From Promethearchaeota archaeon (GTDB lineage Archaea > Asgardarchaeota > Lokiarchaeia > Sigyniarchaeales > SOKP01), in assembly GCA_048939015.1 (NCBI GenBank), contig JBHLPW010000002.1:88743-152742 (forward strand): a stretch of 64,000 nucleotides of DNA, written 5' to 3'. The position numbers and the translations under genes are program-made. Of the stretch, positions 3,619 through 61,152 are shown piece after piece (within the stretch, counting starts at the first letter, position 1; every line of letters begins with the position of its first letter). Under the pieces are notes generated by a model. That model did no database searches, was not told where the DNA came from, and saw only the letters and a list, made by a program, of their open reading frames with translations.

Positions 3619-6600
3619 TTATATCCGTATTATAGCAAAAGATAATAAATTCGTGTAAAATTTAGCTAAATTCCTTCTTTTCATCTCATTTCTTAAATCT
3701 TCATACTCAAAAGCTAAATCATCCAATTTTTTTTCGATTAATTGAATGTCTCTTAGATTGAATTTAATTTCTTCTTCCAATTTTATAATATTTTCTAATT
3801 TTTCTTGCTTTTTTGCTGAATCTGTAATTCTTTCGATATTTTGACGCTGTCGTGGACTCGGAAGTCTGTTTTTATTTCTCTCTAAAGTTCCATTTAATGA
3901 TTCGCGTTTAAGATTTAATATTCTTTTTTTATGTGAGAATATTTTGTCTTTTTTCTTTTTTTCTTGATTGAATATCTTTTCATTTAGGATACTAATCTCC
4001 TTTTTCCAAGTTGAAGTTTTTGATTTAATTATGGTTTTAGCACTCTGCTGAATATTTAAAACCAAATTATAATCTAGATTGATTATATTATCATCCTTAT
4101 GAAACAAAAACATTTCATTGAAACCATTAATATCCAATACAATTTCTGCTAAATTATTAATTTCATTTCCTTTCATATCCACAATTGTAGAAAGAATTTG
4201 GTTTTCAATAATATATCCTTGAAATTTAATAGAGAAAATGAACAGATATAATTGATCGTCTCTAATTAATCCCATATCAAATTTCTTTTGTAATTCCCTC
4301 TTATTTAGATGTAGAATGCTAAAATTTCCTTTAAATTCATCAACTATAATAAAATCTAAAACGTTGTTAATTAAGGGATGTCCTAAGGCAAAAAAATCTA
4401 TTTCTTCTCTTTTTCTAGCCAATTCTAAGTTAAAAGTTCCCATATATTCATTTTTAAATTTATATTTAGTATTGCTTAATAGATTATCATTCAATTTAAT
4501 TTTTGATTGAAAGCCAATATCCTGTGAAAATTCTTCTTTCGAATCTCGAATATCTTCAAGAAGTCCAAATTTTTTATTATTAAGATTGAAAAAGGATTTT
4601 ATTAAAAGATACAATTCATTATGTGTAAGTTTTACTTCCACACATGATGCTAATGAACTAATAAGCCCCTCCATTTGAAATGATCTTTTATCGATCATTA
4701 AATCATCCAATTGCATTTCGATTTCTCTTGCCTTTCTTATTTCATCATCAAGAGTTCGATAAAACTCATTTAATCTTTTACGCTTTTTCCCATCTTCTTC
4801 AGCAAAAATTACACTTTTAAAGTCATTTTCAATTCTACCGATGATTGGTTCCAAGATCCCTATAGATTCCTCAAAAAGATTTATCCTTTTAATTAAAGCA
4901 TGAATCACATCGGTTTCTACAGTCCCTTCCAAAAAGATATTATAGATATATATTTCTTGAGATTCTTGTCCAATTCTATCTAATCTTCCAATTCGTTGTT
5001 CAAGCTTCATAGGATTCCATGGAAGGTCATAATTAATAAGAATGCGGCAAAATTGGAAATTCCGACCTTCACCACCTATTTCTGTAGAAATTAAAATAGA
5101 GGACTTCTTACTACTCCTAAATTTCTCAACAGCCTCATCTTTTTGTATACTATCCAATCCACCATAAAACAAATTTACGCTATTTTGTGGGTTATTATTC
5201 TCGATTAGGGATTTTAAATGATTTAATGTATCAACAAATTGAGTAAAAATAATAATTTTTTCATTTGGATTCTGAGAGTAAATATTATTTAATATTTCCA
5301 ATAGTTTATCTGATTTTGAATCATAAGGTAGCGCTTTTAATTTATTATAAAATTCTTTCAATATTTTTTCCTGATTGAGAAGGTCAATTTCTTCATCTTT
5401 TTTTTCCTTCTGTGCCTTGTTGTTAAAAATCTCATCGACATCTAGAAATTGTTCTTCTAATTCTGATTCATAATATTCTGGATTTTCTTCTCTTATGATG
5501 TTAGTATCAAGAAATATATTTTTGTATCTATCAATCTGGTCAAGTCTCCGTTCAAGACTCCTCAGAAATGCATATTTTGAGCTAGTTAATAGTTTTTGGA
5601 GAGTTGTTATTACAAAACCAATCCCTACATTTTCTTTACTTATTGAAGAATTATATATTTTCGCTAAATAAAGCCGAATTTCATTATACACTTCCAATTC
5701 TTCCCTAGTAGGATTTACCATAATTGTATTTACAATTCTTTTATTCAGTGCGTCATCAGTAAACACATTTTTCTTGCGGTTTCTAATTAGAAATTTCGAT
5801 AAAGTATGGTCTTCTGCAATTTTACTCAATAAGTTCAATTTAAAGGAGTCACTTTGAAGTTTTGAAAGAAACTCATTAATATTTCTATTTTTATCTATAT
5901 ATCTAAGATCTTTCAGAAGTTTTATTGTGTTTTTTACTTCAAAATTGTTTAATTTCTCAATATTATTCAAGTTGGTAGTTAATAAATTAATAAACGGCAT
6001 ATTTTTTCTAAAATGCTCAAAATCACTAAAGTTTTGAAATATTTCAGGATGAATAAGCTCAATTAGAGAAAATAATTCAAAAGAATGAAGTTGTAGAGGA
6101 GTGGCTGTCAATAGTAGCATACTTTCTGATTTTAAACTTAAATTTCTCGCTAATTCATAATTAAGAGTTTCTCTATAATTTCCTGTTGTTGCATTAATAA
6201 GATATCTTCTTAAATGGTGTGCTTCATCAAAAATAACTATATCCCAAGATATACTTGATAGTAATTCGATATATTTTCTATTTCTCGCAAATTGAAGTGA
6301 GCAAATAATTAGATTATCATAATAGAAAGGGTTTTGAAGAATTTCTGGGTGTTTATAGCTCCCTTTTCCTTTTAATTCTTTAATTTTTTTTCCGTCATAA
6401 ATTGTAAATTTTAAATTAAACTTATTTTGCATTTCAAATTGCCATTGCTTCACTAATGAGGCAGGGACAATGATTAAAATACGTTCTGCTAAATCCCTTG
6501 CCATCATTTCCTTTATATAAATACCTGCTTCAATAGTTTTTCCAAGGCCAACCTCATCAGCCAAAATTATTCTTGGAAAGTGTTCTTCAGATAATCTATG

Positions 6601-11135: not shown

Positions 11136-12941
11136 TTGATAATTATGAGTGAAAAAGAAATTGCCTGGGATTTAAGTGAGATTTTTGCTGGTTGTGATGA
11201 TCCAAAAATTTCAGAATCAATGGATGCTCTTTTGAAAGATACGGATGAGATTGTCAAGGGTTATAGGGGCAAAATTAACACAAACAGTTTTTCTGCTCAA
11301 AATTTATTTAACCTTTTAAAAAAACAAGAAAAAATTCTTGCAGATATGGAAGAATTAAAGGTTTTTTCAGTCAATTTATTCAATGCAAATATGACAGTTC
11401 CAGAAACCGAAAATCTTTATAACAAATTTAAGGATTTTCATAGTACTATTTTGAAAAAATTAGCATTTCTAGAAATTGAAATTGGAAAACTTATCAATGA
11501 AAACCCACAGTTGATAGATGATGAGTCTCTTATTAATTACAAAAATTATCTTTTTAAAGTTAAAAGAAGATTTCCGTTCAAACTGTCAGTAAAAGAAGAA
11601 AAGTTAATTTTGGAAAAAGATCAGTACGGAGTTATCGCATGGGAGCAGTTAAGAGATTCTTGGATAAGTAGTAGAAAATTTAAAGTCATCGTAGAAGGGG
11701 AAGAAAAAATAATATCGTTTAGTGATTTCATGCCATTGGCGATGCATCCTGATAGGGAAACAAGATTGTCCGTATTTAAATCAGTCTCTGATTTGCTAGG
11801 AAAAGATGAAAGCATAATATCCTCTGCATTACGAAATATATGCAGTGATTGGGTGAAAATGGTGAATCTTAGAAATTATAACAGCCATATGCATCAAAGT
11901 CTTATAGATTTTAATACAAAACAGAATATAATCGACAATTTGATGAAGACAATAGAAGAAAATATACATATATATCATCGATTCCTAAAAATTAAAGCTA
12001 AACTCTTAAATCTTCCAAAATTGCATGGTGCTGACATCTGGGGAAGACTTCCATTTAAAAAAAAATATACTTGGGAAGAAACAAAAGAACTTACTATTCG
12101 ATTATTCAGTAATTTCGATAAAGAATTTGGAGAAATTGTCTCAGATATCTTTGAAAGACACCATATTGACGCTAGTACAAGAGAAGGTAAATCCGGAGGA
12201 GCCTACTGTTCACCATGGTTTAATGGAAGAACAGTATTTATTCTTACGTCATTCAAAGGCTTAATAAATGACGTTCTTCCTCTCGCTCATGAATTAGGGC
12301 ACGGAATTCATTGCTATTTATCTTCTCGTGAGCAAACATTTATAAATTATATTGCTGAAAAATTATTAGCAGAATCAGCTTCAAATTTTGGAGAGTTATT
12401 ATTAGCAGAACATTTACTCAAATTTGCAGAATCATCTAAAGATAAAATAACAATTTTAACTAATGAATTAACAGGAACTGGAAGTGTATTATTCTATGTG
12501 AGTGCAAGAATGTGGTTTGAGCAGAGTCTTTATGATGCTATTCAGAAAGGTGAATTCTTAGATGGGAATACTATCTCAGAATATTGGTGTTCTGCAAGAG
12601 ATAAAATATTTGGAGATTCTGTTGATTGGTTTGATGAGATGAAATGGCTGTGGATGACGACACCTCATTATTTTTTTTCCGATACTCGTTTTTATAACTA
12701 CCCTTACGTATATGGTAAGCTTTTTGTTTATGCATTATACAAGAGTTATAAAAATGAAGGTGAATCATTCATTCCTAAATTTAAAAAGCTATTAAGTTTA
12801 GGAGACAGTTTATCTCCTGAAGAGCTAGGAAAAATTGTAGGTATGGATGTAACAAAACCTGACTTTTGGCAACTTGGGATAAAACAATTTGAGGAATTTG
12901 TAGAGGAGCTAGAAAAACTCATAGAATTACCAGGCGAATGA
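11136..12941 (+). CDS. pepF: Oligoendopeptidase F (peptidase M3B)
   Basis: WDLSEIF N-terminus, GKSGGAYC, zinc motif HELGH, AESAS, HYF...FYNYPY; ends in TGA. The true start may be the ATG at 11145. Confidence 0.88.
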   Translation: MIIMSEKEIAWDLSEIFAGCDDPKISESMDALLKDTDEIVKGYRGKINTNSFSAQNLFNLLKKQEKILADMEELKVFSVNLFNANMTVPETENLYNKFKDFHSTILKKLAFLEIEIGKLINENPQLIDDESLINYKNYLFKVKRRFPFKLSVKEEKLILEKDQYGVIAWEQLRDSWISSRKFKVIVEGEEKIISFSDFMPLAMHPDRETRLSVFKSVSDLLGKDESIISSALRNICSDWVKMVNLRNYNSHMHQSLIDFNTKQNIIDNLMKTIEENIHIYHRFLKIKAKLLNLPKLHGADIWGRLPFKKKYTWEETKELTIRLFSNFDKEFGEIVSDIFERHHIDASTREGKSGGAYCSPWFNGRTVFILTSFKGLINDVLPLAHELGHGIHCYLSSREQTFINYIAEKLLAESASNFGELLLAEHLLKFAESSKDKITILTNELTGTGSVLFYVSARMWFEQSLYDAIQKGEFLDGNTISEYWCSARDKIFGDSVDWFDEMKWLWMTTPHYFFSDTRFYNYPYVYGKLFVYALYKSYKNEGESFIPKFKKLLSLGDSLSPEELGKIVGMDVTKPDFWQLGIKQFEEFVEELEKLIELPGE

Positions 12942-19833: not shown

Positions 19834-20481
19834 ATGAGTGATTCAAGTACGTTAGATAAATTAAAAAAAGCAGTTCTTGAAGGAGATGATGAAATCGCCC
19901 AAGGACTAGCTAAAAAAGCACTAAAGGAAAAAATAGAGCCGCTTAAAATAGTAAGTGAAGGTATTGTTCCAGGAATACAAGAAGCAGGTGAATTGTGGAA
20001 ACAGAATGTGTATTTTCATACAGATATAATATTATGTGCTGAAGCTTTCCGATTGGCTATGGAAATCATAGAACCAAAATTGTCAGCGGGAGCGCTTGCA
20101 AAATCAGGGAAAATTGTAATGGGAACAGTAGCAGGAGATATGCATAATCTTGGTAAGATTATGGTTAACGCAACTTTACGAGGCGGAGGCTTTGAAGTTA
20201 TTGATCTAGGGGAAGATGTATCTCAAGATACTTTTATACAAAAAGTAAAAGAATTGAATCCTAACATTTTGGGATTAGGTTGTTATATGTCAACCACGAT
20301 GTTAGAAATGAAAGAAATTATGAGCAGACTTAATAATGAAGGTTTAAGAGATAAAATTAAAGTAATGATAGGTGGTGTCCCCTGTACCCAAGAATATGCT
20401 AACGAAATAGGTGCTGATGCTTGGGGTAAAGATGCATTTGATGCTGTAGAAAAAGCAAAGAAATTGATGGGGGTGTCTTAA
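19834..20481 (+). CDS. Corrinoid (B12-binding) methyltransferase protein, MtaC/MttC-like
   Basis: Cap domain plus GTVAGDMHNLGK (DxHxxG), DLGEDV, VMIGG, IGADAW. Confidence 0.92.
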   Translation: MSDSSTLDKLKKAVLEGDDEIAQGLAKKALKEKIEPLKIVSEGIVPGIQEAGELWKQNVYFHTDIILCAEAFRLAMEIIEPKLSAGALAKSGKIVMGTVAGDMHNLGKIMVNATLRGGGFEVIDLGEDVSQDTFIQKVKELNPNILGLGCYMSTTMLEMKEIMSRLNNEGLRDKIKVMIGGVPCTQEYANEIGADAWGKDAFDAVEKAKKLMGVS

Positions 20482-20482
20482 A

Positions 20483-22063
20483 GTGTCTCAGACAGGAGAA
20501 GTTAAAAAAGACATAGGTAGTTTAATTTCAAGAGGAGATACAGGTGCATTAACTATTGGAGCTCAATGTCATGATCATGTAATGTATCTTACAAAATCAC
20601 CTGCTAAAAAATTCTATAGTGATTTTGCCTTTAATTATGAAATGGGTGAGATAGTAGGGCGTTATTATAATTTAGATAGTCCCGCAGGAGGTCATGATAT
20701 ATATGATCTTGAAGTAGAAGCATTAGGTGGAAAGTTAATTTATGGTGAAAATTCGATGCCTACTATTGATTTTCGTGAACCATTAATTAAGAGTCCAGAA
20801 GATCTTAAAAAACTGAAAATGAAAAAAGTTGATTTCCATACAGCTGGTCGATATCCGTCATTAATGAAGTCGGGTGGATTAGTACAAGCCGATATGGCAA
20901 TGGTTTCTTTTTGTTCACCCTTTAGTTTAGCTGTAGGATTGATGGGGTTTCCAGCACTTATTAAAGCGATGAGGAAACACCCAGATTTCGCTCATGATGT
21001 ATTTAAATTTATCGTTGATGATGTATTAACCCCTTCGATTAAAGCTCAAAATGAAACTATGGATGCTCTCATGGGAGTGGGAGCTGATGCTTGGGCTTGT
21101 GTACCAAATTTATCTCCGAAAGAAATGCAAGAATGGGTAGTCCCTTATAATCAAAGACTTGAGGAGAACGTAAAAAAAATCGGAGTCACCACTATGAATG
21201 TAAGTGGGGATTATTGTGAAGAAAGGATAGAAAAATTTGATCCTAAAATCCTTCATGATAGTTTTGATGTAGAAATTGCTAGCATGGGAGGAACTCCTGC
21301 CATATTTTTAGGTATGGGACGTTGGCATGAGTATCCCCTTGAAGCAGTTCGAAATTACACAGAAAAATTTCGCAAAAAAGGAATTCCTGTGACTGTAACT
21401 GCAGGTATAAACGCCCGATTACTACGTGATGGTCCAATTGATAAAATTGTAGATACTGTTAAGAGATATATTGATGCTTTTGCTCGTGATCATAATTTAA
21501 GTATTTTCCTCATGAATGTACCATATGATACTCCATCAGCTCATATTCATGCTGCTGTAGCTGCTACTCATACATATGGAAAATTACCGATCGCAAATAA
21601 CTTGGATGACATAAATTTTGTGCTGCCAAAGAGAGAGTCTTTTGATGAATGGGTAAATACTGAAGAGGCGAAGAAAAAACCTCCAAAAGAAAAAGAGAGA
21701 AGGGGTCTAGCAGGATTACTATGGGGACAAATGGGGAAAATTAATAATAACCCTAAATTTAAGGAACTATATGCAGATGCAAAGATGAGCTTCTTATATA
21801 ATCTCACTGACCAACGATATGGTGCTTTAATTAAGGTAGAAAATGGAAGATTGGAAGTAGAACATGTGAGGAATGATGAGGAGACATTAAAAAGTCTGAA
21901 GGTAGATGCTTTACTCGCATGTCCAGCAGGTTTATTTTTTGATTTTAGTGCTGGTAAATTATCTAAAGTTGCTATGATAGGTAAAATGCTTACTGGCAAG
22001 CTAAAAGTGAAAGGAGCGAAAAAAATGAAAGAACTGGGAAATATAATGGCTCTAATGAGCTAA
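20483..22063 (+). CDS. UroD/MtaA-CmuA family methyltransferase fused to a C-terminal SCP2 (sterol carrier protein-2-like) domain
   Basis: DLEVEALGG, SPFSLA, 'TPSAHIHAAVAA...YG' TIM-barrel end; C-terminal 'FFDFSAGKLSKVAMIGKMLTGKLKVKG' SCP2-like signature; GTG start 1 nt after the corrinoid gene. Confidence 0.75.
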   Translation: MSQTGEVKKDIGSLISRGDTGALTIGAQCHDHVMYLTKSPAKKFYSDFAFNYEMGEIVGRYYNLDSPAGGHDIYDLEVEALGGKLIYGENSMPTIDFREPLIKSPEDLKKLKMKKVDFHTAGRYPSLMKSGGLVQADMAMVSFCSPFSLAVGLMGFPALIKAMRKHPDFAHDVFKFIVDDVLTPSIKAQNETMDALMGVGADAWACVPNLSPKEMQEWVVPYNQRLEENVKKIGVTTMNVSGDYCEERIEKFDPKILHDSFDVEIASMGGTPAIFLGMGRWHEYPLEAVRNYTEKFRKKGIPVTVTAGINARLLRDGPIDKIVDTVKRYIDAFARDHNLSIFLMNVPYDTPSAHIHAAVAATHTYGKLPIANNLDDINFVLPKRESFDEWVNTEEAKKKPPKEKERRGLAGLLWGQMGKINNNPKFKELYADAKMSFLYNLTDQRYGALIKVENGRLEVEHVRNDEETLKSLKVDALLACPAGLFFDFSAGKLSKVAMIGKMLTGKLKVKGAKKMKELGNIMALMS

Positions 22064-22107: not shown

Positions 22108-22611
22108 TTATTCGATTTTTTTTATATCTCTTTTAAGAATTTTACCTAAAACTGCTCCAAGAACGGAAATACCTACCCCAATAAATGGAAGATAAAGCCC
22201 TGCTTGAATTTCATATGTACTCCAAAAGTTCATATTGGTATGTGAATAAAAACCATTTTGTATTCCTAAAATATATCCGATCAAAGTACTTAACTCTAAG
22301 AGTGCCAATATAATCCACAGATGTTCATTTTTAATAAAGACTTTTCTTCCTCTGTAATCCAAAATTGCACTAATAATAAATAAAGCAGAACTTAAAGCTA
22401 TTAGAATTGTAGTGATAATACTAGGAATAAACATTTCATTCGGTAACCAATCTAGCACATCGCCTGCTGTTACATGACGAATCCTTCCATTAATCCAAAT
22501 ATACTCTATCCAAGGCGAAGGACTATACCATACTGGAAACATAAACACCAGTAGAGAGATTATTCCTCCTACTATAGGTAAGAGACAATTTAATTTCTTT
22601 ATTTTGCTCAA
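22108..22611 (-). CDS. Hypothetical membrane protein (about 4 TM)
   Basis: 167 aa ORF with four hydrophobic segments. Confidence 0.7.
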   Translation of the reverse strand: MSKIKKLNCLLPIVGGIISLLVFMFPVWYSPSPWIEYIWINGRIRHVTAGDVLDWLPNEMFIPSIITTILIALSSALFIISAILDYRGRKVFIKNEHLWIILALLELSTLIGYILGIQNGFYSHTNMNFWSTYEIQAGLYLPFIGVGISVLGAVLGKILKRDIKKIE

Positions 22612-22669
22612 GATTTTAATTCCTCATTTATTTGTGCGATTTTATTATTTTTGATTTTTTTACAATTGA

Positions 22670-22728
22670 ACATGAAAATTCATAATTTATATTTAAATTT
22701 TAATCAGAATCACATGAAAATTCATAAT
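22670..22728. promoter_or_regulatory. Two identical 17-bp direct repeats ACATGAAAATTCATAAT, each containing the palindrome ATGAA-N2-TTCAT; putative transcription-factor sites upstream of hdrA
   Basis: Exact copies at 22670-22686 and 22712-22728 (42-bp period) in the divergent intergenic region. Confidence 0.6.
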
Positions 22729-22769
22729 AATTGAGTTTTAATAATATAGACTATTTACTTTATCATTAG

Positions 22770-22808
22770 TATTTCTGGGATTATTATGAAAAACTAATCC
22801 AAGAAATA
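22770..22808. promoter_or_regulatory. Inverted repeat/hairpin upstream of hdrA
   Basis: TATTTCTGGGATTA (22770-22783), 11-nt loop, TAATCCAAGAAATA (22795-22808); 13 of 14 positions complementary. Confidence 0.45.
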
Positions 22809-22855
22809 ATCGATCTGTAAAAGTTAGGAGGTTAGACTAACTAAAGGTGAGAGAT

Positions 22856-24832
22856 ATGTCTGATAAACAGACCAATGAAAACAATAACGAAGATCAACCA
22901 AGAATAGGTGTGTTCGTATGTCATTGAGGTATCAATATCGCAGGAATCTTAGACATACCAAAGATAGTCGAAGAAATAAATAAATTAGAAAATGTTTGGG
23001 CTTATCCATATTTATCATTATGTACTGAAGGTGGTTCCACCGTGATCAAAGAAAAACATGAAGAAGTTAATTTTAATAGAGTTTTGGTCGCTGCTTGCAC
23101 TCCAAAAACACATCAGCCTGTTTTCCATGCAATATTAACAGAGATGGGGTTACCTCCAAGATACTTAGAATTTGTAAACATTCGAGAACATTGTTCTTTT
23201 GTACATCAAGCTCCAGAAGTACGTGAAAAGGCTGCTCTAAAAGCAATTGAATTAATTAAAGCGGGGATTGCCAGAGCAAAATTATTAGAAGATGTCCCTA
23301 CAAAAACAGTACCAGTAGAACCAGCAGCTTTAGTTGTAGGTGGAGGAATTGCTGGTTTGTCTACCGCTATAGATTTAGGTGATGCGGGATATAAAGTCTA
23401 TTTAGTTGAAAAAAATACGACTATAGGAGGACGTATGTCCCAACTTGATAGAACTTTCCCTACAGATGATTGTTCTATATGAATATTGGGACCAAAAATG
23501 CTTGAAGCTAACCGCCATCCAAATATAGAAATCTTATCTTATAGCGAAGTAAATGAAATTGATGGATATATTGGGAATTTTGAAGTTAAGGTAAGAAAGA
23601 AGGCTCGATTTGTTCTTGAAGATAAATGCACGGGTTGTGGTACATGTACAGATGTTTGCCCCGTTTACATAAGTAATTACTTTGATGAACATCTTTCAGC
23701 AAGAAAAGTCATCGATATTGCATTTGCACAAGCAGTTCCCGCAATATCACAGCTGGATAGAACAGCATGCATCGAATGTTTTGCATGTGTAGATGCTTGC
23801 GAGCAATCTGCAATAGATTTTAGTCAGCAGGATGAGATAATAGAACTCAAAGTAGGTACAATAATAGTTGCCACTGGTTGGGATCTCTATCAAGGAGATG
23901 ATTATGGTTATGGTACTTATGATAACGTTATTAATCAAATAGAATTAGAGAGAATACTTGCTCCAAATGGTCCAACTTATGGTCATCTAAAGCGTCCATC
24001 TGATGGTAAACGTCCAACCAAGGTTTTATTCATCAACTGTGTTGGATCAAGGGATGTAAGTAAGAATGCTCACTGCAGTGTTATCTGTTGTAATCTTTCC
24101 CTGAAAAACTCAAAATTAATTAAATCTGAGTACCCTGATTCGCAAATAGTTTGTTGTTACATAGATATGAGATGTGCAGGAAAAGATTATGAAGAATACT
24201 ATAGAAGATCTCGAGATGCGGGAATAATCTTTGTTAAAGGATTAGTTGGAAAAATTGAAGAAGATCCTCTAACAAAAAACCTTACTGTTCAATTTGAACC
24301 TGTTGGAACGGACTCAGTAGTTACTATGGAATTCCATATGGTAGTATTATCACCTGCTTCACTCCCATCTCAAGGAACAGTTGAAATTGCAAAAGTATTA
24401 AACATGGAAAAAAGTCCCGATGGATTTTTAAAAGAATATCATGCTCGTTTGGATCCAATTAGTACAAAAGTACCTGGAATTTATATTTGCGGTTCTGCTC
24501 AAGGTCAGAAAGAAATCGATAAAGCAGTAAGTCAAGCAAGAGGAGCTGCATCAGTAGCAGGGATTCCTATGGGTAAGGGAGAATATACTATGGAACTAAT
24601 TCGAGCAACTCCTTCGGATGAAAGATGCGCTAAATGCTATAAATGTATTGAAGCCTGTCCTTATTCTGCGATTTCTGTAAATGAACAAGGCAATATAGTT
24701 GTTAACCTTATTAATTGTCGAGGTTGCGGTACTTGTGCTTCATTATGCCCTTCAAAAGCAATTGAATTAACATACTTTAGAGATGATCAATATATGGCAT
24801 TAGTTGACGAATTATTACCAATGGAGGAATAA
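22856..24832 (+). CDS. hdrA: Heterodisulfide reductase subunit A, selenoprotein with two Sec (658 aa)
   Basis: ATG at 22856 after an AGGTGA RBS. One frame continues through TGA 22925-22927 (RIGVFVCH-U-GINIAG) and TGA 23480-23482 (TFPTDDCSI-U-ILGPKM), both at conserved HdrA Cys positions. This joins track ORFs 23042..23482 and 23486..24832. Also GGGIAG, CVGSRD, HCSVICC and two ferredoxin pairs. Confidence 0.93.
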
Positions 24833-24845
24833 AGAGGTAATTAAA

Positions 24846-25304
24846 ATGGCTGAAGATAATGATATTAAAATAATAGTATTTGCTTGCTGGAAATGAGGTT
24901 ATGGTTCAGCGGATATGGCAGGGACTATTCGAGCCCAATATCCGGATTCGATTAGAAACGTATTAGTGCCTTGCTCAGGACGTGTAGGACCAGATCTAAT
25001 TATGCGAGCATTTGGAAGAGGTGCAGATGGTGTCGTTATTAATGCTTGATATCCTGGTGAATGCGATTATGAGACAGGAAATTACCATGCATATAGACAG
25101 GTTGAATATATAAAAGAAATCTTAAAAGTAGTCGGTATAAGTCCTGATAGGTTAAAAATAATCTATTGCACCGCTGCTGAAGGTCAGAAATTTCAAAATG
25201 AGGCTATTGAAATCGATAAAACAATCCGTAAATTAGGACCAAGTCCTTTACATACAAAAGGCACACCTAAAAAAGAAAAAGCTAAAGCGAAAGCTAAAGC
25301 TTAA
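24846..25304 (+). CDS. mvhD: MvhD/VhuD [2Fe-2S] subunit, selenoprotein with two Sec (152 aa)
   Basis: Not in the ORF track. MAEDNDIKIIVFACWK-U(24894-24896)-GYGSADMAG...VPCSGRV...GADGVVINA-U(25047-25049)-YPGECDYETGNY...GISPDRL...AAEGQKF...LGPSP; TAA at 25302-25304; GAGGT RBS upstream. Confidence 0.93.
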
Positions 25305-25310
25305 AAAATA

Positions 25311-25384
25311 ATGTGTTGACTGATGAAGCTGAGTTAAAAAAAATGAGAACTCAGCTGAAGAAATGGGTGCACCATATAACACAT
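25311..25384 (+). ncRNA. Eukaryote-type SECIS element (cis-acting 3' UTR stem-loop)
   Basis: ATGA (25323-25326), perfect 9-bp stem AGCTGAGTT (25327-25335)/AACTCAGCT (25348-25356), A-rich loop AAAAAAAATGAG, then GA (25357-25358). Outer pairing ATGTGTT (25311-25317)/AACACAT (25378-25384). Located right after the mvhD stop. Confidence 0.85.
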
Positions 25385-25483
25385 AAAAAAGTAATAATAA
25401 AATATAAAAAAAAATCAAAAATTTGATTCATAAATTTGGAAAATTTAAAAAATAGTTTAGTATATAGTTAGAGTTGGAATTTC

Positions 25484-26623
25484 ATGGAAGTCATAGCAGA
25501 ATACTTAATAAAGATTGAAGATTTTCCTAAGATCTTAACAACTTTATTAAAGGAAAAAGCTGTAGATAAATTCATAGGTGCTGAACTTAGGGTGGATAAA
25601 AAATCTGGTGCTATAGACCGATTTACTGTTCAGCCTAAATTAGCAGAAAAAGAGGAAGATGTTAAAGATTTTCCTTTAACTCCTCTAATTGCATTTGGAT
25701 ACGCAAGAACAGACTCGGCTTCAAAGTATCTGCATAAATCAGTTGCAGGTGCGATGAATGAAAAAGTAGGATTGGTTGCTCGTCCGTGCGACACAAGAGC
25801 CCTAATAGAACTTGCAAAGATTCGACAAGTAAACCTAGACAATCTCTTTGTGATTGGTATTGAAGATCGGGGAATGCTTCCAAAAGCAGGACGAGAAATG
25901 AAAGCGATTAAGGATGTTGATCCAACTAAAATTGTGAAAGAAAAAGTAGGCGATACTGGTCTTATCGTGAAAATGGAAGATGGAAGCACAAAAGAGCTTA
26001 ATCTTACTGTAGCAGAAAATTGTTTAAGATGCTATCGTAAAATTCCTGTAGTCGCTGATTTAACTGTGAGTGATCTTGGAATTCCAGTTGATTCGGATGA
26101 GATAATCCTAAAAGTTTATTCAGATAAAGGGAGTGAAATTTTAGATAAATCAGGAATTAGTAAAAAACCTCTCCCCGATAAAGAAAAAAAAGCTCATTCA
26201 GATAAATATAATGAAATAATCGAAAAAGCAAAAGAAAAACGAGCAAAAGATTTGGAAGAATGGGATACACTTTCACAAGATGAAAAAATTGCTGAACTTC
26301 TTAAATGTACAATGTGTAACACTTGTATTCGTGGTTGTCCTGTTTGTTATTGTGTGGATTGCATATTAATGAAAAAGAGAAAGGATAAAGCTATTGATAA
26401 AGCAACATATCAATTAACGAGAGTAGCTCATGATGCTGATCGCTGTGTTGAGTGTGGGAACTGTGATAATAATTGCCCTCAAAATTTACCTCTTTCGCTC
26501 TATTTTCAATCTTTGAATGAAGCTTTTAAAGAAAAGTTTGGTTATGAGGCAGGGATGTCTCTCGAAGATATTCCATTTCGATCTGGAAAAGCAATTTCTC
26601 AGATGGAATTAGAGAAAACATAA
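25484..26623 (+). CDS. FdhB/FrhB-like (F420 hydrogenase/dehydrogenase beta family) subunit with C-terminal 2x[4Fe-4S]
   Basis: VGLVARPCDTRALIEL, NCLRC...ADL, CTMCNTCIRGCPVCYCVDC, RCVECGNCDNNCP. Confidence 0.82.
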   Translation: MEVIAEYLIKIEDFPKILTTLLKEKAVDKFIGAELRVDKKSGAIDRFTVQPKLAEKEEDVKDFPLTPLIAFGYARTDSASKYLHKSVAGAMNEKVGLVARPCDTRALIELAKIRQVNLDNLFVIGIEDRGMLPKAGREMKAIKDVDPTKIVKEKVGDTGLIVKMEDGSTKELNLTVAENCLRCYRKIPVVADLTVSDLGIPVDSDEIILKVYSDKGSEILDKSGISKKPLPDKEKKAHSDKYNEIIEKAKEKRAKDLEEWDTLSQDEKIAELLKCTMCNTCIRGCPVCYCVDCILMKKRKDKAIDKATYQLTRVAHDADRCVECGNCDNNCPQNLPLSLYFQSLNEAFKEKFGYEAGMSLEDIPFRSGKAISQMELEKT

Positions 26624-26806: not shown

Positions 26807-27730
26807 ATGTTATTACAAATTCTAGATAGCGAAATGGTATTTAATCTTTCAACAGCGCCTGTACTCGCATGTAGTTTGCTTTTTATTGGTTATTTGATAT
26901 TACGAAGAAACGGAAGAGGTATAAAATCCACAGAGTTTAGGGTTATTTTCATGTTCCTTACGTCAATAGCGGTAATGGTAACCATTACAATATTAGTAAA
27001 TGTAGTGTTTGAATATGGTGGTCTCCCTCTAATTTTTGCTTTTATCATAGGAATCGGTTATATGTTATTTTGTTTATTTTACATCGGTAGGACAATTTAT
27101 AGAGCGAATAACCAGATAGCTAATTTATTAGATAATGTGATCAAATCAAGTTCAGATGTAGCTGTGAATGTAGCGAATATAGCTACGGAGTTAGCAGCAA
27201 ACGCAAGTGAAATAAATGCCGCCTCAGAAGAGATTGCATCATCTACTTTAGAAGCAACCAATCTTACAGAAGGGATAATGAGAGCTTCAAGTGAAATAAA
27301 CAATGTTAATTCTCTTATTACGAATATAGCAGATCAAACAAATTTATTAGCATTAAATGCCAGTATTGAAGCTGGTAGAGCAGGTGAACAGGGGAGGGGA
27401 TTTGCGGTGGTCGCGGATGAAGTAAGAAAGTTAGCAGAAGAGTCAAAAAGAGCAGTCAGTAATACTGGTAATAAAATTTCAGATATCATTAATAACATCC
27501 AACTTTCATTTAACAATATGGAAGGAATTAGTTCGGCATCGGAACAACAGAGTGCTTCTATGGAAGAAATTACTGCAACAGCTAATAAATTAGGGACAAT
27601 GGCAGAGGTTCTAAAAGAATCCTTGGAAGTAAAAGAGGAATCGAATAAACAAAAGAAGAAAATGACCTTAAAAGTAAAAGGCAGACATAAAAATCAGTCA
27701 GACAAAAAATCTGCTAAGAAGTTTAAATAG
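26807..27730 (+). CDS. Methyl-accepting chemotaxis protein (short, N-terminal TM helices)
   Basis: Signalling hairpin [40 protein letters not shown]; three N-terminal TM segments. Confidence 0.92.
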
Positions 27731-60129: not shown

Positions 60130-61152
60130 TCATTGTATATATTTCATTTCTTCTTGAGGGATTTCTCTAAATCCAAGAGAGAGCATCATTCCATATACAA
60201 TTCCCAATACAATATTTACGAAAAGGGAATTACTATCAAGGGATAAATCAGTTCGAGGTAATAATTCTGGAAGTATTTTTTCTAGAATATATTTAGTTTC
60301 TGGTTTCTCATTATAATATTCCGTGATGAGGTTCTTAAATTTCCTCATGAATTCTTCATGCTCAATTATTATTTGCCGAACATTGTTCTGTCCAGAAACA
60401 ATACCAAAATGTCCATAACCTGCCTTTAAAGGTTTCAATTTTTTTAGATTTTCTAAAGAGTTCATGTAATCTTCATGATTATAATATATTGGCATGGAAG
60501 TGGGCATTGTTAATAATTTTGAATCATGATATATAGTTCCAGCAGCTTCTCCCAAAAAAATAAAATCAATAGAATTATTTTTAATTAAGACTGGAGTTTG
60601 GTGATCAGGAGTGTGACCTGGTGTTTTTAAAATAGCCAATTTTATTTCTGAATTATTTATATTAAATGTATCAACAATGTCAAGATTTTCAGGATTTGAA
60701 GTAAAATTTGTACTTGGTTCAATTATTTCAAATGCTTTATCTTCAATAGCTTTCATTTCGCCTACCAAATTTCCGTATGTACTTCTTCCACGAGCTAGAT
60801 GATGTTCATAATCATTCAAAAGTAACTTAGTGGTTGCGTTAGTAAGTATTTTTACCTCAGGATTATACTTTTTTATTATTTCATATAATTTCCATAGACC
60901 ACCATTGTGGTCAAAGTGATGATGGGAAGTTATTAGATATTTGAATGATGACAAGGGGATATGATTTTTTTTGAAGTATCTTATTCCTTTTTTGACATCC
61001 AAAGAAGAACCACAATCAAAAAGAATCGAACAATCTTCAAATTCCCCTAAAAACGAGGATAACATTCTTGTAGTACCATAAGATCTCATATCAATATGAT
61101 GCAAGTATTCATTAACTTTCCCCGAATTAAGAATTATAGCCTCGTTATCCAT
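60130..61152 (-). CDS. MBL-fold metallo-hydrolase
   Basis: FDCG, TSHHHFDHNGG (HxHxDH), TPGHTPDH, GHFG; ends in TGA. Confidence 0.9.
   Translation of the reverse strand: MDNEAIILNSGKVNEYLHHIDMRSYGTTRMLSSFLGEFEDCSILFDCGSSLDVKKGIRYFKKNHIPLSSFKYLITSHHHFDHNGGLWKLYEIIKKYNPEVKILTNATTKLLLNDYEHHLARGRSTYGNLVGEMKAIEDKAFEIIEPSTNFTSNPENLDIVDTFNINNSEIKLAILKTPGHTPDHQTPVLIKNNSIDFIFLGEAAGTIYHDSKLLTMPTSMPIYYNHEDYMNSLENLKKLKPLKAGYGHFGIVSGQNNVRQIIIEHEEFMRKFKNLITEYYNEKPETKYILEKILPELLPRTDLSLDSNSLFVNIVLGIVYGMMLSLGFREIPQEEMKYIQ

Follow-up and report, generated by a model that had tools for sequence, protein, structure and literature searches.

The stretch of DNA analysed here (64,000 nt of contig JBHLPW010000002.1, hereafter the window) belongs to the Promethearchaeota archaeon assembly GCA_048939015.1, and it carries the gene pair hdrA and mvhD, which encode the heterodisulfide reductase subunit A and a protein of the FlpD family (MvhD, or VhuD). 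Each gene is interrupted by two in-frame UGA codons, and a selenocysteine insertion sequence (SECIS) follows the second gene. It is probable, at about 0.8 by our estimate, that this one eukaryote-like SECIS serves all four UGA codons as selenocysteine (Sec) codons. The two genes would be transcribed together, most likely from a promoter located ∼100 nt upstream of hdrA, and a ribosome at any of the four UGA codons would receive Sec-tRNA(Sec) from an archaeal SelB/EFSec. This factor would be recruited by the single kink-turn SECIS (AUGA...GA) lying 18 nt past the mvhD stop codon, which would have to act over distances of 273 to 2398 nt and past the TAA stop codon of hdrA. The shared SECIS as a phenomenon is already known (Mariotti et al. 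2016, PMC4989117; Huang et al. 2024, PMC11227280). A first-pass annotation of this DNA, made from the sequence alone, had put the shared element forward as its own inference; it was already the reading of PMC4989117 and was repeated in PMC11227280. The coordinates of all features are collected in Table 1.

When TGA was translated as U, positions 22856 to 24829 formed a single frame of 658 amino acid residues and positions 24846 to 25301 a single frame of 152 residues. The list of open reading frames (ORFs) made with translation table 11 had cut hdrA into two pieces (23042–23482 and 23486–24832) and contained mvhD only as a piece of 44 residues. The first-pass annotation had placed both genes, the four TGA codons and the 13-nt spacer exactly, and it was right that the ORF list splits hdrA; of mvhD, which it gave as missed entirely, the list shows the 44-residue fragment. 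Both readthrough translations aligned to their families over the full length. HdrA matched solved structures with 685 bits (PDB 9sfi_A) and 654 bits (5odc_A) and contained Fer4 and FAD/NAD-binding domains according to Pfam, and MvhD matched Pfam PF02662 with 143.5 bits (profile positions 1–123 of 123) and PDB 9sw2_D with 125 bits. In these alignments U24 of HdrA stood opposite a Cys of 9sfi_A, and U209 opposite a non-standard residue printed as X in the same chain; U17 and U68 of MvhD, with 51 codons between them, were both opposite Cys of 9sw2_D. The first-pass annotation had given the four positions as Cys in ordinary HdrA and MvhD; in the solved structures, three face Cys and the fourth the non-standard X, and all four are Cys/Sec positions.

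Forty related loci from other genomes were examined, and 32 loci (the window itself counted) were orthologs of this pair. TGA was found at HdrA 24, at HdrA 209 and at both MvhD sites in all 32 of these loci. Two further HdrA positions varied between TGA and Cys, namely position 56 (TGA in 4 orthologs, Cys in 28) and position 81 (TGA in 1, Cys in 31), and such Cys/Sec exchange is the behaviour expected of selenoprotein sites. The hdrA gene ended in TAA or TAG in every ortholog (TAA here), no TGA column was present near the C-terminus of HdrA in the 32-ortholog alignment, and the hdrA-mvhD spacer measured 12–17 nt in most orthologs. In one ortholog (L038, about 3948–4007), mvhD appears to stop at a TGA ∼20 nt before the AUGA of its SECIS; this fits the published minimal UGA-SECIS distance, a UGA near the SECIS acting as a stop.

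The element after mvhD was analysed with a covariance model (R1), which was built from a gap-free 39-column alignment of 23 SECIS elements from two paralog classes. In the stem, 96% of the cells were paired, compared with 28–45% when the partner was slid, and compensatory changes were observed at 8 of the 9 base pairs. R1 matched the core with 45.2 bits (E 1.8e-10), and with filters off this was the sole strong match in the window. Across the genome, R1 detected six elements, one after each of the four mvhD genes with two TGAs and two after other candidate selenoprotein genes, and in the congeners it found 3–9 elements per genome (12/12 searched). The 12-nt apical loop opens with eight A, and its length ranged from 11 to 13 nt among the orthologs through the length of the A-run; the paralog of this genome on contig C76 carries the core variant AUGA_AA. 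A hand-written AUGA-stem-loop-GA descriptor had been applied to the whole genome and returned mostly chance matches in AT-rich DNA, and when the two SECIS classes were aligned by MAFFT, flanks included, their structures were out of register; the covariance model and the gap-free alignment were used instead.

Around the core, the RNA folds into a three-way junction, with a lower helix and a side hairpin (AUGG-N5-CCAU) in addition to the SECIS stem. The surrounding 101 nt gave a minimum free energy of −20.8 kcal/mol (z −4.3). Most of the 14 SECIS families compared showed the same topology, built from unrelated sequences, and the z values obtained by shuffling the flanks were all negative (mean −1.9). 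The lower helix and the side hairpin were invariant within the orthologs, so that no covariation was seen there. As no mention of the lower helix or of the third arm was found in the main text of PMC4989117 or PMC11227280, the third arm may go beyond published accounts of the SECIS.

The assembly comprises 4.86 Mb (30% GC, 94.9% complete, estimated contamination 6.5%), with the window on its contig C21. The closest loci elsewhere (85–95% protein identity) all belonged to metagenome-assembled genomes (MAGs) of Promethearchaeota/Promethearchaeia, as NCBI calls the Loki-type Asgard archaea, including 'Loki_b32', and the host is a Lokiarchaeia-type Asgard archaeon. The SepSecS gene (477 bits) is immediately preceded by a tRNA-Sec (61 bits, anticodon TCA), and ∼4 kb from these two genes lies an elongation factor whose domain III is that of archaeal SelB (aSelB_III; aSelB/EFSec). 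There are also two selD genes with one in-frame TGA each. Of the Sec machinery that the first-pass annotation had named, these components were recovered and PSTK was not (see below).

Table 1. Positions of the hdrA-mvhD pair, its SECIS and adjoining features in the window.
Feature	Position	Strand	Remarks
AT-rich block, putative hdrA promoter	22724–22766	+	TATA-like box; nearly invariant in 32 orthologous loci, flanks variable
hdrA 5' leader	22824–22850	+	two Shine-Dalgarno-like motifs: TTAGGAGGTTAG (22824–22835) and AAAGGTGA (22843–22850)
hdrA, heterodisulfide reductase subunit A	22856–24832	+	658 aa with 2 Sec; ATG 22856, TAA 24830–24832
Start-codon hairpin	22858–22872	+	GUCUG-N5-CAGAC; G of the start codon inside the stem
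UGA, Sec24 of HdrA	22925–22927	+	codon 24; context VCH-U-G
UGA, Sec209 of HdrA	23480–23482	+	codon 209; context DCSI-U; canonical HdrA Sec position
hdrA-mvhD spacer	24833–24845	+	13 nt; contains GAGGT, a Shine-Dalgarno-like site for mvhD
mvhD/vhuD (FlpD family)	24846–25304	+	152 aa with 2 Sec; ATG 24846, TAA 25302–25304
UGA, Sec17 of MvhD	24894–24896	+	codon 17; context CWK-U-GY
UGA, Sec68 of MvhD	25047–25049	+	codon 68; context NA-U-YPGEC
Whole SECIS fold, three-way junction	25311–25384	+	lower helix 25311–25317 with 25378–25384; SECIS stem; side hairpin 25363–25375
lokiSECIS core	25323–25358	+	AUGA 25323, 9-bp stem, 12-nt A-rich apical loop, GA 25357–25358
frhB-like iron-sulfur gene	25484–26623	+	Pfam FrhB_FdhB_C and Fer4 domains

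No second SECIS-like element was detected within the pair. With filters off, R1 gave no match between 22856 and 25304 up to E=10, and none inside hdrA or mvhD of 39 related loci up to E=1. Rfam models searched over 22400–25600 with E up to 10 yielded nothing SECIS-like, only chance matches of miRNA-like or riboswitch-like kind, and over the window no Rfam match was obtained at the gathering score. The synonymous-site diversity of hdrA, calculated from the 32 orthologs, was flat at ∼0.41 and dipped only in the first 20 and the last 20 codons, the latter dip preceding the ribosome-binding site of mvhD. No hairpin of the bacterial type was found 3' of the hdrA UGA codons, where the 70-nt consensus folds of the 32 orthologs ranged from 0 to −0.64 kcal/mol; the gene-wide mean of 70-nt windows was −0.7 kcal/mol. 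The internal scan of hdrA for SECIS-like folds, which the first-pass annotation had proposed, was thus negative by R1, Rfam, synonymous diversity and consensus folding. With one strong lokiSECIS per pair and none in hdrA, a spacer of only 13 nt, Sec machinery in the genome and TGA stop codons in other genes, the single shared SECIS is supported as far as sequence analysis allows.

Several points weigh against it. PSTK was not found in the assembly by NCBIfam and Pfam models or by tblastn with a congener PSTK. It is present in all 20 relatives searched, and for this reason the absence is most simply read as an assembly gap. Two candidates for PSTK were considered and rejected: a weak KTI12-like match on contig C33 has motifs that look like those of adenylylsulfate kinase, and a 226-residue ORF that follows SepSecS lacks both a Pfam match and an obvious P-loop. 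The searches for a second signal reach structures that are lokiSECIS-like, listed in Rfam or evolutionarily conserved, and a signal of another, unrecognised kind within hdrA is conceivable. The 3' end of hdrA may contain an internal promoter. The reading also provides no mechanism by which a 3' signal would serve a UGA codon 70 nt from the start codon under coupled transcription and translation. Finally, a conserved hairpin at the start codon of hdrA has no place in the account given above.

The start-codon hairpin folds with −5 kcal/mol (z −2.7) and is the strongest consensus fold across hdrA (z −5.35), and the synonymous diversity there was 0.08, compared with the mean of 0.41 for the gene. 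Its stem was invariant in the 32 orthologs, and family-level orthologs keep the stem with loops of 5, 6 or 8 nt. In two family-level orthologs, a 6-nt loop shifts the encoded peptide from S-x-x-Q-T to S-x-K-T-D-Q and leaves the stem intact, which points to the RNA, and not the protein, as the level at which selection acts. The two leader motifs TTAGGAGGTTAG and AAAGGTGA likewise varied little or not at all among the aligned orthologs. The hairpin motif occurs in two copies in the 4.86-Mb genome, both at the start of Sec-hdrA genes, and the two other Sec-hdrA genes of the genome, each with 3 or more in-frame UGA codons, have no such hairpin. No Cys-type orthologs of this hdrA class were found: among the matches listed for 60 genomes of the order, all strong ones to hdrA have an in-frame TGA. 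Inspected by eye, the 5' hairpin showed no stretch complementary to the SECIS region. A scan of genome contigs with a loose hairpin pattern was set aside: it returned mostly bacterial chance matches, and its Sec-only outcome among the hdrA matches was circular. The presence of a start-codon hairpin on Sec-hdrA may go beyond published accounts.

This hairpin is one ground for a different division of labour, in which the 3' SECIS serves mvhD only and the UGA codons of hdrA are recoded through the start-codon hairpin, the 5' leader, a trans-acting factor or some other unrecognised signal. Such an arrangement would make sense of a strongly conserved hairpin that is selected at the RNA level and, in this genome, confined to two Sec-hdrA genes, and a SECIS located in the 5' untranslated region has been reported in a methanogen. 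We nevertheless regard it as unlikely: the hairpin has neither the AUGA/GA nor the GAA_A feature and was matched by neither R1 nor Rfam, it stands at different distances from the first UGA in different orthologs, and the two Sec-hdrA genes that lack it carry 3 or more in-frame UGA codons all the same. If, on the other hand, the SECIS after mvhD is shared, the hairpin might, for example, keep ribosomes from starting on hdrA until the distal SECIS has been made and has bound EFSec. A delay of this kind, if true, would offer a way for a UGA codon so near the start to be served from the 3' side under possible translation-transcription coupling. It is nonetheless an unlikely proposal that the start-codon hairpin and the three-armed fold of the SECIS both have a working role in the long-range recoding.

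A separate question is whether the SECIS and the hdrA UGA codons are on the same RNA. If hdrA and mvhD were not on one mRNA, or if hdrA transcripts ended before the SECIS, the UGA codons of hdrA would terminate translation or be read through at a low level. An AT-rich, TATA-like stretch in the last 60 nt of hdrA, where the synonymous diversity dips, would fit separate transcripts. However, both UGA codons are kept in 32/32 orthologs and the frame downstream of them stays under purifying selection, and a truncated product of 23 residues would leave the 658-residue frame pointless. The 13-nt spacer, with its Shine-Dalgarno-like site, and the occurrence of only one T5 run between the hdrA start and the SECIS also speak for one transcript, so that separate transcripts are considered very unlikely.

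It is scarcely credible that the TGAs are sequencing or assembly errors, pseudogene lesions or the result of a genome-wide reassignment of TGA, since apart from the origin of the sequence in a MAG with some estimated contamination nothing favours this, and the comparative data have already refuted it: independent assemblies of 32 species carry TGA at all four sites (32/32 loci), which argues against errors and chance, the genome contains tRNA-Sec, SepSecS, aSelB and selD, and TGA terminates 413 of 2986 long ORFs genome-wide (∼14%). In the window, two genes that the first-pass annotation had cited as still ending in TGA were found to do so, namely a pepF-like gene (Peptidase_M3; stop codon at 12939–12941, with the Pfam match ending at residue 580 of 602) and, on the minus strand, a gene of the metallo-beta-lactamase fold (stop codon at 60130–60132).

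Downstream of the pair, the frhB-like gene was located ∼180–195 nt from mvhD in 31 of the 32 orthologous loci, and the conserved module is hdrA-mvhD-SECIS-frhB-like. A TATA-like stretch just upstream of the frhB-like gene suggests that it has its own, possibly leaderless, transcript. Upstream (19834–22063), the other neighbours are a B12-binding corrinoid protein and a 526-residue methyltransferase of the URO-D family; downstream (26807–27730) there is a protein containing a methyl-accepting chemotaxis signalling domain. Most orthologous loci share neither of these neighbourhoods.

Two other selenoprotein candidates were noted elsewhere in the genome. The first (contig C121:12653–12898; L085:3154–3402) is a protein of ∼80 residues without a Pfam match, in which one transmembrane helix precedes a Gly-rich stretch and Sec (G-G-G-G-U-G-C). 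At least 20 of 40 congeners gave look-alike matches containing an in-frame TGA, and all 12 homologous ORFs examined (in this genome and 11 congeners) had a lokiSECIS right after the stop codon. PMC11227280 lists seven Asgard selenoprotein families; the protein is in none of them and may represent a new family. The second (contig C12; L084:2176–2526, minus strand) is a protein of ∼116 residues whose gene has two UGA codons side by side (H-A-D-U-U-A-D) and is followed, after the stop codon, by a lokiSECIS; this protein, too, has no Pfam match.

Among the closest known systems is the HdrA-VhuD pair of Lokiarchaeota (PMC4989117), and the first-pass annotation was correct that Sec-containing HdrA and VhuD are known from Methanococcales and Lokiarchaeota (PMC4989117, PMC11227280). 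In Lokiarchaeota, the two genes invariably form a tandem in which the spacer is very short (Mariotti et al. 2016, PMC4989117). The locus described here agrees with that system in gene order, strand and spacer, in a HdrA with several Sec residues including the canonical site, in a pair of Sec residues ∼50 codons apart in VhuD, in a single AUGA/GA SECIS (9-bp stem, A-rich loop) after the second gene only, and in an hdrA stop codon that is UAA or UAG. It differs in an apical loop of 12 nt, compared with 11 nt in the published lokiSECIS, and in having only 2 Sec sites in HdrA. In hundreds of Asgard MAGs, hdrA and frhD were always neighbours and almost all shared one eSECIS-like structure (Huang et al. 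2024, PMC11227280). The type I eSECIS-like elements of these genes share with ours the AUGA_GA core and its AUGA_AA variant, and nothing substantive differs. A 2026 review gives the same picture of a shared SECIS; no experimental test of it was found in the literature. Reporter work in Methanococcus maripaludis with the Bla system (PMC9622424) goes no further than showing that a 3' SECIS of a methanogen can act from 520–679 nt away. The locus is therefore a further clean and well-conserved example that adds no new principle, and it could be used as a defined test case, with a unit of 2.5 kb, four UGA codons, one SECIS and many orthologs.

The vhuD and hdrA genes of Methanococcales and Methanopyrus resemble the present pair in their protein families, in the Sec positions (two in VhuD, and HdrA at about residue 200) and in a SECIS located in the 3' untranslated region. 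They differ in a SECIS of the GAA_A bulge type, in an own element for each gene and in a HdrA with a single Sec (PMC4989117, PMC11227280). With the eukaryotic SECIS (RF00031) and selenoprotein P (SelP), the present element shares the AUGA/GA kink-turn core, the unpaired adenines of the loop and the long-range action, predicted here, from a 3' position on several UGA codons. Unlike its eukaryotic counterparts, it was unmatched by the Rfam model even at E 10 and would stand on a polycistronic mRNA, and no SBP2 is known in Lokiarchaeota (PMC4989117). The element is a lokiSECIS, outside the eukaryotic family as modelled. Lokiarchaeota have been proposed as a bridge between archaeal and eukaryotic Sec decoding on account of such a single 3' SECIS, which would act on a polycistronic mRNA over 2.4 kb and past a stop codon.

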